Part shown: piece after piece, positions 3,731-24,364 of the stretch
How the letters are laid out: the number at the start of each line of letters is the position of its first letter
Position numbering within the stretch: position 1 is the first letter of the stretch
Assembly: GCF_000026545.1 (NCBI RefSeq)
Contig: NC_011601.1
Length of the DNA stretch: 64,000 nt
Reading direction: 5' to 3' (one strand)
From: Escherichia coli O127:H6 str. E2348/69
Lineage (GTDB): Bacteria > Pseudomonadota > Gammaproteobacteria > Enterobacterales > Enterobacteriaceae
Notes under the pieces: model-generated
Seen by the model: only the letters and a program-made list of their open reading frames with translations
The model's database searches: none
Told to the model about the DNA's origin: nothing
Translations under genes and position numbers: made by a program

Positions 3731-3750
3731 AGTGACATGTCACACTCATG

Positions 3751-3891
3751 CTATGACAAACCTATGTACCCTGCTATACCAGATAATATTAAAACAACTG
3801 CGACGGCAAATTCCCCATCTTCAATGATACATTTACGGTTCATTACGACAAGCGCGACAAGTGCCAACACAACAAGAATTATAACAATCAT
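3751..3891 (-). CDS. Small hydrophobic peptide (46 aa, two predicted TM segments), not in ORF track
   Basis: Manual translation MIVIILVVLALVALVVMNRKCIIEDGEFAVAVVLILSGIAGYIGLS; AAGGA 8 nt upstream of ATG; starts just after stop of upstream gene. Confidence 0.25.
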   Translation of the reverse strand: MIVIILVVLALVALVVMNRKCIIEDGEFAVAVVLILSGIAGYIGLS

Positions 3892-3901
3892 TTTCGCATC
3901 C

Positions 3902-6376
3902 TTATTGCGGAGTAACATCCTGAGGTCGCCACCAGTATGTCTGGTTAAATTCTTTCTTCGAACGCTGCTCCATCTTACGCAGATAGCCAGGGGAAAAATA
4001 TTCTTGCATCTGATTAAAGATCATATGATCAAGCGCAGCCTTCAGGTACCAGATGTTGGCACCAGGTGTCAGACCTTTTCCAAGCTTAACCAGATCACCA
4101 CCAGTTTGCTCGCTCTTACCTTCTACCGCATTCAGTGGAATACCCTGGCCTATTTTGATAACGTCATCGACCAGGCCAGCCACCGGTCCGAGCATTGAAG
4201 CCAGTGCGCCGCTTCCGTACCGGGTGTGATCAGACAACAGGAAATCACCGTACAGGCCAAGACCGCCGCCTTTCAGCAGAGCACCAAGCCAGAATTTAGC
4301 AGCATCTTCACCGACCATATCCCGCGGATTACGGCCTGATGCCATGTCATTTAGTTGCTGAGAAAGCGCGCCAAGTATTGTCGTGCTGGCTATAAACGTC
4401 GCGATATAAGCAGCCCGCCCACCAGCAGAAGGCATACCCATAGCCCGCGACCAGTGGCGCATCACGACAGAGATCGGGAATGACTTGAACAAGAATACGC
4501 TGCGGGTTAATTCACCTTTCCATGTTCCGCGCTGAATACCTGAACCGGTAACCATCTGCTCACGCGCGCCCGGAGTTATCACAGCCATGTCAACTTCTTC
4601 GGTAACCGCTCCGAGTAACTTACGCATTGCTTCAAACTTCACGCGCTCCGGTGATCCGAGGTGCTCTACAGCAGCATCGGGTATACGCATGATGCTTTCC
4701 GGAGTCAGCATCGTATCGTTGCCTTTCCCCCAGTCCTCCTGTTGCGCCAGTTTCCACACGCTCCAGTCGGTATCGGTGATTCCTTTGCTTTTCAGTATGC
4801 GGAAATCGTCATTAGACAGGCTTTTCAGATCCGGCGTTCTGGTGACAACATCACCAAGACTGCCCATCATAGTGACACCGTAGGCACGCTTGTGCGCGTC
4901 TGACCACGCAGTTAATCCACTGGCGCGCATAACCGCAGTTGCAGCCCACCGGGAGACAGACGGTCCCATATTATCCATCGCCCAGCGGTTAACGCTGCCG
5001 AGCAGTGATTCCATAGCCAAGCCAGCACGACGAGCCCTGGCCAATTCAGTGCGATTCGTTGGGTCCATAGCTTCAAGCTGGTTACGGAATAGCTGATTCA
5101 TCGGAAGGTTGGTAACCTTCGCTGACAGGTACATGGTTCCAAGATCAGAGAACGATGACAACAGAGCAGAACCGAGACGACTGGCAACCATCCAGTTGCG
5201 GATGTTATCCGACCAGCGCGCAATATGCGGGTTTGCAACAGGCTGAGTTTTACCAGAAATAAAGTTATACAGGTTCTCAGTATTGTTTGCCTGGCGCTCT
5301 ATACTACCGGTATCCTGCGGGTTAGCCGTAGCTGTCTCTGATTTCGTCTGATCCAGCAGTGAGCGGAACACATGATCCGGGTTTGGTCCGTAGGTTTCCA
5401 CCAGCGCAATGTCTTTACTGATACCTTCCAGGTGCCCTACCATGATTTCCCAGAGTGACCGGTCGCCGTACATCTGCTGGTACTGAAGGTATGAATCAGC
5501 GTCTTTAAAGTGGATTTGGCGTGAGGCGTTGCCACGGTTTGCCCGCGCACCGGAAATACGCATACCGGTATCAGTGAGTTTATTCAGGCCACCTGTGGCA
5601 ATCGTGTTATAGGCTTCACCGAGAAAAGCTGATAACTCAGTATCATTCATCAACTGGCCGTCGGCGCGTGTGTAATATTTGCGATCGAGTTTACCAATCA
5701 CATCACTTACCCACTTATCCTTCGATACCGCCCCAACCTTTTCCATAGAGTGGTGCTGTGGTATACCCCAGTTTTCCAGATATCCGATATCACCACCAGC
5801 ATCATTAAACCTGCGGCGCAGTAGCTCAGTAACTTCGCCCCAGGCTTTAGCCCCTTTCATGGCTTTCGCATTGCCAGTTTTCTGGCCGCGCATCTCAAAC
5901 ACCAGATCACGGACTCCGGCTTCATCTTCAAACAGACCGAAGAAACGAGGATCAACAGCCTCGAATACCTCCTGTAACTGGCTTAATGCGTAATCACGGG
6001 TCGCTTTCGTGCGTGACTCAACAGACAGAAAGTTTGATTTACCGTCAGCGCTGAAGGCGATCGTGCGGTTGAGTGCGCCTAGCTTTCCGTCAGCACCCTG
6101 ATAACTGTTAATGAAGTTGTCCAGGCGCTGACGCGCTGCGATGGTAAGCGCGACACGGCGTTTTTTCAGTGCCACCTCTCGCTGCAACTCTTCAGCCGCC
6201 AGTTGCCCGGCTCGGCGCAGGCGTTCAGCGTCGTTAAGTTGACGCCATGACATCGGATCGTCACGGGCAATAGATCGCATATTGCGGTAAATGCGGTCTT
6301 CGATATTCTGTATTTCTCGGGCTGTAAGAGTGCGCTGTGCTGCCTGTTGCACGGCCTGAATACATTCCTGTCTCAT
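3902..6376 (-). CDS. Internal virion / DNA-ejection protein (824 aa)
   Basis: Large protein between tail-tube genes and tailspike, the position of internal core/ejection proteins in T7-like virion modules; assignment by position and composition only. Confidence 0.5.
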   Translation of the reverse strand: MRQECIQAVQQAAQRTLTAREIQNIEDRIYRNMRSIARDDPMSWRQLNDAERLRRAGQLAAEELQREVALKKRRVALTIAARQRLDNFINSYQGADGKLGALNRTIAFSADGKSNFLSVESRTKATRDYALSQLQEVFEAVDPRFFGLFEDEAGVRDLVFEMRGQKTGNAKAMKGAKAWGEVTELLRRRFNDAGGDIGYLENWGIPQHHSMEKVGAVSKDKWVSDVIGKLDRKYYTRADGQLMNDTELSAFLGEAYNTIATGGLNKLTDTGMRISGARANRGNASRQIHFKDADSYLQYQQMYGDRSLWEIMVGHLEGISKDIALVETYGPNPDHVFRSLLDQTKSETATANPQDTGSIERQANNTENLYNFISGKTQPVANPHIARWSDNIRNWMVASRLGSALLSSFSDLGTMYLSAKVTNLPMNQLFRNQLEAMDPTNRTELARARRAGLAMESLLGSVNRWAMDNMGPSVSRWAATAVMRASGLTAWSDAHKRAYGVTMMGSLGDVVTRTPDLKSLSNDDFRILKSKGITDTDWSVWKLAQQEDWGKGNDTMLTPESIMRIPDAAVEHLGSPERVKFEAMRKLLGAVTEEVDMAVITPGAREQMVTGSGIQRGTWKGELTRSVFLFKSFPISVVMRHWSRAMGMPSAGGRAAYIATFIASTTILGALSQQLNDMASGRNPRDMVGEDAAKFWLGALLKGGGLGLYGDFLLSDHTRYGSGALASMLGPVAGLVDDVIKIGQGIPLNAVEGKSEQTGGDLVKLGKGLTPGANIWYLKAALDHMIFNQMQEYFSPGYLRKMEQRSKKEFNQTYWWRPQDVTPQ

Positions 6377-6380
6377 TCAA

Positions 6381-23332: not shown

Positions 23333-23922
23333 TCTTCACCACCAGCCCGCTCTTTCACGCGACGGCGGGCCTTAGCCATGCGGTCGGCAATGGTGACGGT
23401 GCCGGAAACTTCCAGGCGCTCTTTGAACGCATTGACGTCGACGTGCTTACCAATCAGCTCGAGGTTCTTCACCTTGTCAGGCCATTTGATTTTCTTGAGG
23501 ATGGTCTCGATTGATGTCTCATCCATGTTCATGATGGTAGAGGACAGGTCGAAACCACTCAGTGTGGTGCGCCATATCTTCGGCCACTCGCGGATAGGCT
23601 TCAGGGTGCCATCATCGTTCAGGATGTCGATCACATCCATCTGGTCGATTTCCACCAGGCGAAGTAGCACGTAATCAGCACTGACGCGCAAACGCTTGTT
23701 GCGTTCCTCCATCAGCTCGGCGATCCGTTTCTGGATGCGCTCATCACGCATCATGACACTGGCTTTAACCGCTGCCGTATTAGGCGAGAACCCTGCGTTA
23801 ATCGCCGCCTGCGTCTGATTCTCAGGGCATTTGGTATATTCCTGCGCATAAGCCTCCTGCATCGCTGTTAGGGGCTTGTACTGAGTTGATTTTCGTTTTG
23901 GTGCTTTTGGTTCTGCGGGCAT
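23329..23922 (-). CDS. terS: Terminase small subunit (197 aa from ATG at 23922)
   Basis: Basic N-terminus MPAEPKAPKRKS; ATGA overlap with terL; track ORF extends 25 codons upstream through an operator palindrome, so the internal ATG with GGTGG RBS is preferred. Confidence 0.5.
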   Translation of the reverse strand: MPAEPKAPKRKSTQYKPLTAMQEAYAQEYTKCPENQTQAAINAGFSPNTAAVKASVMMRDERIQKRIAELMEERNKRLRVSADYVLLRLVEIDQMDVIDILNDDGTLKPIREWPKIWRTTLSGFDLSSTIMNMDETSIETILKKIKWPDKVKNLELIGKHVDVNAFKERLEVSGTVTIADRMAKARRRVKERAGGEE

Positions 23923-23951
23923 TGTTACCACCGAAGTAATAATTACCGTTT

Positions 23952-23968
23952 TGGTAATAGTAACACGC
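23952..23968. promoter_or_regulatory. Operator-like palindrome ATTACC-N5-GGTAAT
   Basis: ATTACCgttttGGTAAT, 30 nt upstream of terS start. Confidence 0.45.
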
Positions 23969-24025
23969 AAAACAAAGCCGCCATAGTCGGCGGCCATTGC
24001 AATTTATTGTCGATATCGTGACATG

Positions 24026-24364
24026 TCACACTGATAATTTAGTTTCATGCCAGCCACGAGTTACCCAACATGCCGAATCACCATCGCACGGACACGACTT
24101 AACTGGTAATACATCGCCGCATTTTACGCAGCGGTTAGCACTGATTGACTTGATACGAACACGAACGCGGGCATTATCCTGACGGATAAGCAACGCGATG
24201 TACTCGCTCATATCATACGGCGCACGACCAGGGCGACGGGCGGCGCAGTTACGCGCCAGCATTTCCATTTCCTGCTCGTCGAGTTGCAATTCCATCTTGC
24301 GGTTACCGGCTTCAGCCAGACGGGCACGCTGCGCGGCTTTGCGTTCTGCTGTGGATTTAGCCAC
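24026..24364 (-). CDS. Hypothetical Cys-rich protein (112 aa)
   Basis: CVKCG...CPCDGDSAC motif; last gene before the terminase operon. Confidence 0.4.
   Translation of the reverse strand: MAKSTAERKAAQRARLAEAGNRKMELQLDEQEMEMLARNCAARRPGRAPYDMSEYIALLIRQDNARVRVRIKSISANRCVKCGDVLPVKSCPCDGDSACWVTRGWHETKLSV

Follow-up and report, generated by a model that had tools for sequence, protein, structure and literature searches.

Introduction

What reads a short palindrome that recurs between the late transcription units of a temperate phage, and to what end? The question is posed by a stretch of 64,000 nucleotides (nt) from Escherichia coli O127:H6 str. E2348/69 (assembly GCF_000026545.1, contig NC_011601.1), called here the window, which holds an epsilon15-like (Uetakevirus) prophage integrated beside guaA, with its late genes on the − strand. 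The palindrome consists of 12 bases, the half-sites GTGAC and GTCAC around a free centre of two (GTGAC-NN-GTCAC), and one of its copies covers the stop codon of a small gene, 24026..24364, of the family of epsilon15 gp49. We know of nothing established about late gene control in epsilon15-like phages, and a literature search yielded nothing on it either.

We propose that GTGAC-NN-GTCAC is the site of a dimeric, sequence-specific DNA-binding protein, here most likely the 112-amino-acid product of 24026..24364, and that it would act as a boundary element. Taken as a whole, this proposal, built on sequence comparison, seems to us evenly poised between right and wrong, and its components differ in strength. 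A functional tie between the site and the gp49-family gene appears highly probable from the comparison of many genomes. To the view that the gp49-family protein binds the palindrome directly we lean slightly. That the effect of binding would be the control of a transcription boundary is a tentative suggestion, on the doubtful side.

The palindrome and its positions

The sequence GTGACAYGTCAC is found three times in the window (palindromes A, B and C; Table 1), where 0.01 matches would be expected, and the count was reached in none of the 100 dinucleotide-preserving shuffles of the window that served as background. The original prediction had started from a 15-nt identity between the two outer copies and a variant at the middle one. 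Both are real at that expectation, the 15-mer GTGACATGTCACACT being identical at 3732-3746 and 24018-24032. A looser search for GTGAC-NN-GTCAC returned a fourth match, GTGACGGGTCAC at 2795-2806, within the tailspike open reading frame (ORF) 555..3284; it falls outside the three sites whose position is conserved in relatives and may be a chance match.

Because the late genes run on the − strand, the palindromes stand at the ends of units and not at their starts. That the copies sit at three late-operon junctions holds as predicted. Their placing at operon starts does not, for they close the upstream units, beside intrinsic terminators, and palindrome A, first described as a free-standing element some 95 nt upstream of terS, instead overlaps the stop codon of ORF 24026..24364. 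Palindrome B lies between two convergent genes, terL (− strand, ending at 21851) and a moron of 164 amino acids (+ strand, 21313..21807). The gene that ends at 3751, before palindrome C, encodes 55 amino acids, and beyond terminator C a gene of 92 amino acids in the opposite orientation (3423..3701) stops 10 nt short of that terminator.

This arrangement bears directly on the late-activator binding site that had been suggested first, a site at which a small early protein would switch on transcription of terS, portal and tailspike. Three junctions of the late region are indeed occupied, a promoter-like GTGACA-17-TAAATT runs over site A on the late strand, and the neighbouring gene is the last of the early-right operon, which is the place of Q in lambdoid phages. 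However, nothing resembling a promoter was matched at B, and at C no such match includes the palindrome; no −10 element stands at a usable distance, and both sites lie between convergent genes, upstream of an opposed moron. The match over site A is lost in TL-2011b and phiv142-3 while the palindrome is kept, and the starts of the late units bear operators of the phage repressor (Rep operators) 90-1200 nt further on. Moreover, some copies of the palindrome in other phages are intragenic, and the gene and its site coexist there with a Q gene (N15, ZF40) or with a regulator at the Ogr position (a P2-like Yersinia phage). We regard activation of late promoters as a very improbable function.

Conservation among epsilon15-like phages

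The original prediction had made its motif depend on conservation in related prophages, and the 12-mer is kept at the junctions of five relatives: at all three in epsilon15 (39612, 2142 and 19517), PAT1 and phiv142-3, and at two of the three in Tyrion and TL-2011b. When site A was aligned from five phages the palindrome was invariant and an indel altered the spacer to the terminator (23-41 nt at A). At site B the half-sites are invariant and the centre is AT, GT or AG. At site C (six phages) the upstream flanks are unalignable, and the invariant part comprises the palindrome, a spacer of 1-3 nt and GGCCGC-N4-GCGGCC with its T-run.

The same pattern is seen in 80 epsilon15-like loci from IMG/VR. 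In 75 of them the first base of the palindrome coincides with the final base of the gp49-family protein match, and the stop codon is overlapped; in most loci a further copy follows 2.2-3.8 kb downstream of the gene. Together the loci hold 148 copies of the palindrome, and 54 of these have a terminator at a distance of 4 nt, on the strand opposed to late transcription.

A gene and its site in unrelated phages

The gp49-family gene ends in or next to GTGAC-NN-GTCAC in epsilon15-like, N15-like, ZF40, P2-like, Vibrio, Klebsiella and metagenomic phages, and complete phage genomes hold one to three copies of the palindrome where base composition leads one to expect 0.03-0.05. The small Cys-rich product of 24026..24364 had been named from the outset as a protein whose binding should be assayed, a choice that now looks well made: its gene ends in or beside the palindrome in at least seven independent lineages.

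In ZF40, a myovirus with its own Q, TGTGACATGTCACA begins 2 nt past the stop of gp22 and two further identical copies are present. The linear plasmid prophage N15, also with Q, carries CGTGACTGGTCACG over the stop of gene 46 and again inside repA, and between genes 33 and 32 stands a third copy, CGTGACCAGTCACG when read on the same strand. Across 49 N15-like IMG/VR loci the site lies over the stop in 46 and 21 nt past a shorter protein match in three, and the copy within repA is kept in 44; sites of the N15 type read CGTGAC..GTCACG, without ATG. In the P2-like Yersinia phage TGTGACGCGTCACA covers the stop of the gene, and a regulator occupies the position of Ogr in the same phage. Vibrio phage K308 has three copies, one of them 19 nt before terS, and Klebsiella phage ST512-KPC3phi13.3 has one over the stop and one that is intragenic. 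Among six metagenomic members of the family, 30-32% identical, three have the site over the stop, and one member has two copies, with starts 23 base pairs (bp) apart, in an intergenic space between convergent genes. The centre of the palindrome varies by clade (AT, TG, GC, AC, AG) and the half-sites are fixed. The genes next to the gp49-family gene differ, and the annotation tables of the phages examined show no partner gene common to them.

The N15 copy at 28550-28563 precedes a promoter-like TTGACG-18-TAGAGT, with about 23 nt between it and the −35, before the anti-repressor operon (genes 32-30); this copy and that in repA are both conserved across the N15-like IMG/VR loci.

The most divergent case is instructive for the relation of protein and site. 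In Aeromonas phage 13AhydR10PP, with a homolog of 31% identity, GTGAC-NN-GTCAC was not found. There are four copies of an asymmetric variant, GTGACCGGACAC (116, 809, 2563 and 28983), one of which ends 14 nt upstream of the gp49-family gene. The variant, together with a divergent homolog, may reflect covariation of protein and site.

The same set of phages speaks to the second function originally suggested, a packaging-related signal, that is, a pac site or one recognised by terminase. Sites A and B bracket terS-terL in epsilon15-like phages, and the copy of the Vibrio phage just upstream of terS would be in keeping with it. However, cos phages (N15, P2-like) carry the palindrome at places far from cos, and the position of the palindrome follows the gp49-family gene, not the terminase. 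Furthermore, Pseudomonas phage Flu_PA14_4 and Acinetobacter phage Ab9 have neither gene nor site, though an epsilon15-type terminase and structural module is present in them, so that a link of the palindrome to the late or packaging module is excluded. We put the probability of a packaging signal close to nil.

The gp49-family protein

The product of 24026..24364 belongs to PHROG 536, a family labelled 'transcriptional regulator'. Searches of Pfam, NCBIfam and PDB sequences (phmmer, and a profile against PDB) gave no match for it, and no Pfam family of the ribbon-helix-helix (RHH) type was matched. The family comprises 231 clusters at E<=0.001 among 1.84 billion representative proteins. Homologs were found by tblastn in 153 phage records, whose named host genera, read from the record summary, are Vibrio, Escherichia, Salmonella, Klebsiella, Yersinia, Aeromonas, Enterobacter, Pectobacterium and Citrobacter; two of the 153 records have no genus attribution.

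In the AlphaFold2 model, obtained from an alignment of 71 sequences with a predicted local distance difference test (pLDDT) score of 92.6, a basic helix (residues 5-18) and an extended segment are followed by helices 30-42 and 52-74 and then by a C-terminal Cys-rich region with the cluster C79, C82 and C99. In the family alignment R13, C79 and C82 are invariant, and R8, R43, Y50, E54, L59, P87 and C99 are conserved in at least 90% of the members. The predicted model contains the β-strand, helix, helix core of the RHH (Arc/MetJ/CopG) superfamily, in which the core dimerises and sets a two-stranded sheet into the major groove, and the fold is probably that of an RHH protein with a zinc cluster. 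Its top structural match is MatP, a weak one, and a relationship to MatP is a lead, not a finding. Altogether the protein is a candidate for binding the palindrome, and the conservation of R13 and of the cysteines would fit a DNA-binding protein.

Resemblance to matS and MatP

The half-sites of the palindrome are those of a host element. The sequence matS, GTGACRNYGTCAC, has 13 bp and reads GTGAC-RNY-GTCAC (PMC6907758, PMC3603311). Compared with it, the phage palindrome has identical half-sites set one base closer together (12 versus 13 bp). GTGAC-N3-GTCAC was not found in the window or in the eight phage loci searched, and matS is absent from 500 Escherichia and Salmonella prophages, which have been argued to avoid it (Bobay et al., PMC3603311). 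On the side of the protein, neither the window protein nor 71 family members matched the Pfam domains MatP (PF06303) and MatP_C (PF17414), both of which are matched by genuine MatP proteins. An hhalign comparison of the family profile with MatP was not significant (E 0.095, probability 0.6%), the MatP homologs retrieved for the profile being near-identical E. coli sequences only.

The fold of MatP is said, in work of 2012 by Dupaigne, to be tripartite, with a four-helix bundle, an RHH domain and a C-terminal coiled coil. Three resemblances point in the same direction: half-sites that are those of matS, MatP as the best structural match of the RHH protein, and host groups (Vibrio, Aeromonas and enterobacteria) that we take to have MatP. 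The phage system may function as MatP/matS does, yet it falls outside the MatP family, given that the Pfam domains do not match and the 13-bp spacing is not kept.

An unlikely alternative to binding by the phage protein is that a host protein binds, MatP or another factor of enterobacteria, vibrios and Aeromonas with a specificity like that for matS, the gp49-family protein being a modulator or mimic and not the only binder. The phages would then position or organise their DNA through MatP-linked association with Ter or the divisome, or through exclusion of MukBEF. The identity of the half-sites with matS agrees with such a factor, as does the fact that every named host genus is Vibrio, Aeromonas or an enterobacterium. 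So do the phages that lack a gp49-family gene and still hold two copies each, and the relatives from Pseudomonas and Acinetobacter that lack the site. The hosts Pseudomonas and Acinetobacter are not known to have MatP, and for this reason Flu_PA14_4 and Ab9 cannot separate the model of a phage protein from that of a host factor. On the other hand, the spacing is 12 bp and not 13 bp, and alone a host factor leaves unexplained why gp49-family genes end in the site across unrelated genomes. The avoidance of canonical matS by prophages argues, in addition, against their wanting MatP bound outside Ter (PMC3603311).

There is a more speculative and decidedly unlikely reading. In it, temperate phages of enterobacteria, Vibrio and Aeromonas would possess a private, orthogonal version of MatP/matS, with a small RHH-zinc protein that reads the closer-set half-sites. 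The altered spacing would prevent cross-reaction of host MatP and phage protein, and the two or three bound sites would organise or bridge replicating phage or plasmid-prophage DNA. Alternatively, the protein would manipulate host machinery that reads MatP, through MukBEF unloading or divisome anchoring; in either case it would be no classical transcription factor. The copies of phages that lack the gene would, on the same reading, exploit a host factor or the protein of a co-resident prophage.

Other host regulators with palindromic sites were considered and rejected. The SlmA-binding sequence (SBS), GTGAGTACTCAC, is likewise a palindrome of 12 bp; it demands G, T, A and G at positions 1, 2, 4 and 5, and the phage site has C at position 5 and A at 6. 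A change at SBS position 5 significantly impairs SlmA binding (PMC3020112). The exclusion of CRP and LexA by the original prediction is upheld: the TGTGA and TCACA motifs are 4 bp apart in the phage palindrome and the CRP site (TGTGA-N6-TCACA) requires six, the flanking T and A are not conserved in the N15-type CGTGAC..GTCACG, and the LexA box CTGT-N8-ACAG is not present.

Organisation of the late region

Read in the late direction, the region starts with the gp49-family gene (24364..24026), followed by palindrome A, terminator A, a Rep operator (23958..23942) and the genes terS and terL. Next come hairpin B (21847..21828), palindrome B, the opposed moron and a second Rep operator (20610..20594), and then gp3, the portal, capsid, tail and internal virion genes and the 55-amino-acid gene, which are closed by palindrome C and terminator C. 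Last are the opposed 92-amino-acid gene, a third late Rep operator (3364..3348) and the tailspike gene (3284..555). The coordinates are collected in Table 1.

Table 1. Coordinates of the palindromes, the linked gene, the terminators and the Rep operator beside terS in the window
Feature	Position	Strand	Sequence	Context
Palindrome A	24018..24029		GTGACATGTCAC	Covers the TGA stop (24028..24026, −) of the gp49-family gene
Palindrome B	21812..21823		GTGACACGTCAC	14-bp form TGTGACACGTCACA at 21811-21824
Palindrome C	3732..3743		GTGACATGTCAC	8 nt beyond 3751..3918 (−), final small gene of the structural operon
gp49-family gene	24026..24364	−		112 amino acids; epsilon15 gp49 / N15 gp46 family; PHROG 536; RefSeq WP_001140120.1
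Intrinsic terminator A	23976..23995	−	GGCCGCCGACTATGGCGGCT then TTGTTTTG	Between the gp49-family gene and terS
Intrinsic terminator B	21828..21847	+	AGCCCGCCGATGCGCGGGCT then TTTTC	Canonical for the + strand moron
Intrinsic terminator C	3713..3730	−	AGGCCGCAATAGCGGCCT then TTTATTTTT	Closes the portal-to-gp18 structural operon
Rep operator	23942..23958		ATTACCGTTTTGGTAAT	Just upstream of terS; sister copies at 20594-20610 and 3348-3364

The terminators beside the palindromes, from which the three copies of epsilon15-like phages stand 1-23 nt away, close in succession the early-right operon with gp49, terS-terL and the operon from gp3/portal to gp18. In the window 22 nt separate palindrome and terminator at A, where the palindrome is upstream in the late direction, 4 nt at B and 1 nt at C. 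The recurring unit consists of the palindrome, 1-5 nt, a hairpin and a T-run, and is late-directed at C and opposite at B. At both these junctions one direction reads a canonical hairpin with T-run and the other a hairpin followed by the palindrome; for hairpin B in the late direction, the palindrome occupies the place where the T-run would stand. In epsilon15 the equivalent of terminator A (39646..39672) is annotated as a rho-independent terminator, and that of terminator C lies at 19531..19556.

This closeness to terminator hairpins gives rise to the idea that the palindrome acts as RNA, a small transcribed hairpin for antitermination (nut/put-like), processing or translational coupling. It is transcribed just before a terminator hairpin at all three sites (A and C in late transcription, B in that of the opposed moron), and in some phages the upstream stop and the next start codon both lie inside it. 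Its own hairpin, however, has 4 bp and −1.2 kcal/mol, no better than shuffles (z = −0.03), and is inconsistently used in the minimum-free-energy folds of the three contexts. What is conserved is the sequence, without compensatory changes, and a loop does not need a self-complementary centre. At B the palindrome comes after the hairpin in the late direction, and the N15-type sites have no ATG. An RNA element seems to us scarcely credible.

The second repeated element of the region is the operator of the repressor. ATTACC-N5-GGTAAT is present in ten copies in the window, where 0.14 are expected (3348-3364, 20594-20610, 23942-23958, 26370-26448, 28739-28772 and 29480-29634), and is the sequence of the repressor protein_bind sites annotated in the epsilon15 record NC_004775. 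It is presumably the element that the original prediction counted as its first palindrome. Besides the copies of the immunity region, one stands just before each late unit (terS, gp3/portal and tailspike), which suggests direct control of the late promoters by the repressor. The GTGAC palindrome is not annotated in the epsilon15 record. It was also compared with the Rep operator of epsilon15 and SPC32H and is not the same: the sequence differs, and none of the ten Rep operators coincides with it.

Some neighbouring features deserve mention. A terS ORF called mechanically (23329-23997, − strand) would take in both terminator A and the Rep operator. In epsilon15 terS starts at 47, after the operator at 12..27, and alignment with it makes the ATG at 23922 the probable true start; the RefSeq terS of 224 amino acids may be too long. 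Between the moron and gp3, RefSeq places a pseudogenic tRNA-Gly at about 21056-21168, a position at which SPN9TCW, phiv142-3 and Klebsiella phage ST512-KPC3phi13.3 have a tRNA-Arg; ARAGORN detects no tRNA in this interval, which is consistent with decay of the tRNA. The moron product is a member of PHROG 18493 with a weak HNH-endonuclease-like match. The 92-amino-acid protein belongs to PHROG 450 and is weakly similar to the C-terminus of an anti-repressor; a full anti-repressor is found at junction C in Tyrion, TL-2011b and phiv142-3.

Palindromes without the gene

Several observations weigh against the proposal of a boundary element bound by the gp49-family protein, and the first of them is the distribution of the site. 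A scan of IMG/VR for TGTGACATGTCACA returned at least 120 stretches, and a gp49-family ORF is present in at least 33 of the 120 listed, a lower bound because the stretches are partial contig pieces. Many of the listed stretches without the gene are lambdoid immunity and replication regions, in which the palindrome overlaps the stop of a cro-like helix-turn-helix gene (PHROG 35 or 3) together with the ATG of the gene after it. The complete genomes of SaltyDalty, Fraca and BUCT708 have two copies each, against 0.04 expected, and no gp49-family ORF was found in them even at E<=10. Sites without the gene in these three phages imply another binder there, which would be a factor of the host or a phage protein analogous to that of the gp49 family. 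The site has a wider distribution than the gp49-family gene.

The second concerns the boundary. Adjacency to terminators is particular to the epsilon15-like phages, and some copies in N15, ZF40 and the Klebsiella phage are intragenic, so that a boundary role may not generalise. The overlap with stop codons may be mere genome compaction, since the palindrome holds both TGA and ATG. Finally, the literature search, whose reach did not extend to the epsilon15 genome paper, gave no paper with GTGACATGTCAC. It also returned no characterisation of the protein family and nothing useful on epsilon15 gp49 or the late genes of SPC32H.

In SaltyDalty and Fraca one copy spans the cro-like stop codon and the ATG of the gene that follows (PHROG 1343), and the second lies inside the Q gene, where it encodes V-T-C-H (18870-18881, 15420-15431; 29464-29475, 33314-33325). 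Other lambdoid copies fall within the coding sequence of a conserved ORF of about 107 amino acids, in which the 14-mer encodes T-C-D-M-S-Q (32 of the 120 listed stretches). Among 100,044 species genomes, the listed matches to TGTGACATGTCACA were taxonomically broad and background-like, with few enterics and vibrios. The sequence is repeated many times in anammox genomes (Candidatus Jettenia ecosi, Brocadia), and in Geomesophilobacter, Brocadia and Desulfatitalea it forms tandem pairs whose starts are 31-35 bp apart; these copies are presumably sites of unrelated regulators or a repeat family.

It could also be argued that there is no dedicated binder, and that the palindrome is a portable linker of junctions or recombination, offering TGA and ATG on both strands and spreading among temperate phages as modules are exchanged, or part of a mobile terminator module. 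Its placement at gene and module junctions, beside morons and at the ends of cro and gp49 genes, and the many lambdoid immunity and replication regions among the listed matches to TGTGACATGTCACA, would be expected of a linker. However, the combination of a centre that varies by clade with fixed half-sites argues for recognition by a protein and not for spread driven by homology. Intragenic copies in different reading frames are conserved, as that of N15 repA, the N15-type sites again have no ATG, and 12 bases are very short for homologous exchange. We consider a linker quite improbable.

A model for the gene and its site

The reading that we prefer, with the palindrome as a protein-bound boundary element, can be stated as a model. 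The analysis establishes the conservation and over-representation of the palindrome, its tight link to a predicted RHH gene and, in epsilon15-like phages, its nearness to terminators; contact of the protein with the palindrome and the effect of such contact are inferred. A symmetric dimer would be well matched to a perfect palindrome whose centre is free. Gene and site form a cassette, with one copy of the site over the stop codon and two more elsewhere in the genome. In the model, the 112-amino-acid protein would be made late in the early operon and would bind as a dimer, irrespective of orientation. The bound dimer would constitute a roadblock or insulator that strengthens or gates termination and modulates read-through at the junctions, possibly with bridging of sites; a palindromic roadblock would fit the convergent junctions B and C. 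The next unit begins at a repressor operator. The overlap with the stop codon could permit loading of the nascent protein in cis or feedback on its own transcript.

A functional parallel may be found in cluster A mycobacteriophages, where the stoperators of L5, sites of the repressor gp71, are scattered through the genome and block elongation. Stoperators resemble the palindrome in being short, specific, dispersed between genes and outside the immunity region, and in being thought to act on passing transcription. They differ in being asymmetric, oriented, present in 20-30 copies per genome and bound by the immunity repressor, whereas the phage palindromes are symmetric and number one to three per genome. 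Unlike the stoperator case, the immunity repressor of the epsilon15 group has an operator of its own, ATTACC-N5-GGTAAT.

The comparison with other RHH proteins reveals further differences. P22 Arc and Mnt, CopG, ParG, omega and TraM have operators over promoters, usually upstream of their own operon, whereas the palindrome lies next to terminators and, at the gp49-family gene, at its 3′ end. Neither the domain with the Cys cluster nor the basic helix at the N-terminus of the 112-amino-acid protein belongs to RHH families of the Arc/Mnt/CopG type. As for lambdoid Q and tR', the likeness lies in the order of elements, a last early-right gene followed by a short spacer and an intrinsic terminator before the late genes. 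Compared with the Q-binding element (QBE), which lies within a late promoter followed by a sigma-dependent pause, the palindrome is perfect and is not inside a promoter, two of the three sites having none. An identity of the protein with the Q antiterminator was rejected: it has no Q match in Pfam or PHROG, and the cassette stands beside genuine Q genes in N15 and ZF40.

Implications

Systems in which an RHH protein reads a palindromic target are known. What is new here is the use of matS half-sites at an altered spacing, the fusion of the site to the stop codon of the gene itself, the few dispersed copies beside terminators and the wider spread of the site, which is also present in phages without the gene. 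If the proposal is true, the family PHROG 536, now labelled only as 'transcriptional regulator', would gain a defined DNA target as an RHH/zinc binder. Moreover, the identity of the half-sites with matS, taken together with the known avoidance of matS by prophages, raises the question of whether these phages have an orthogonal MatP-like system or tap that of the host. The palindromes could be used as markers of module boundaries in annotating and engineering epsilon15-like phages. For the biology of this group, which includes SPN1S, SPC32H, phiV10 and prophages of enteropathogenic and enterohaemorrhagic E. coli (EPEC/EHEC), the gene and its site would provide, if the proposal is true, a handle on how early and late units are kept separate.

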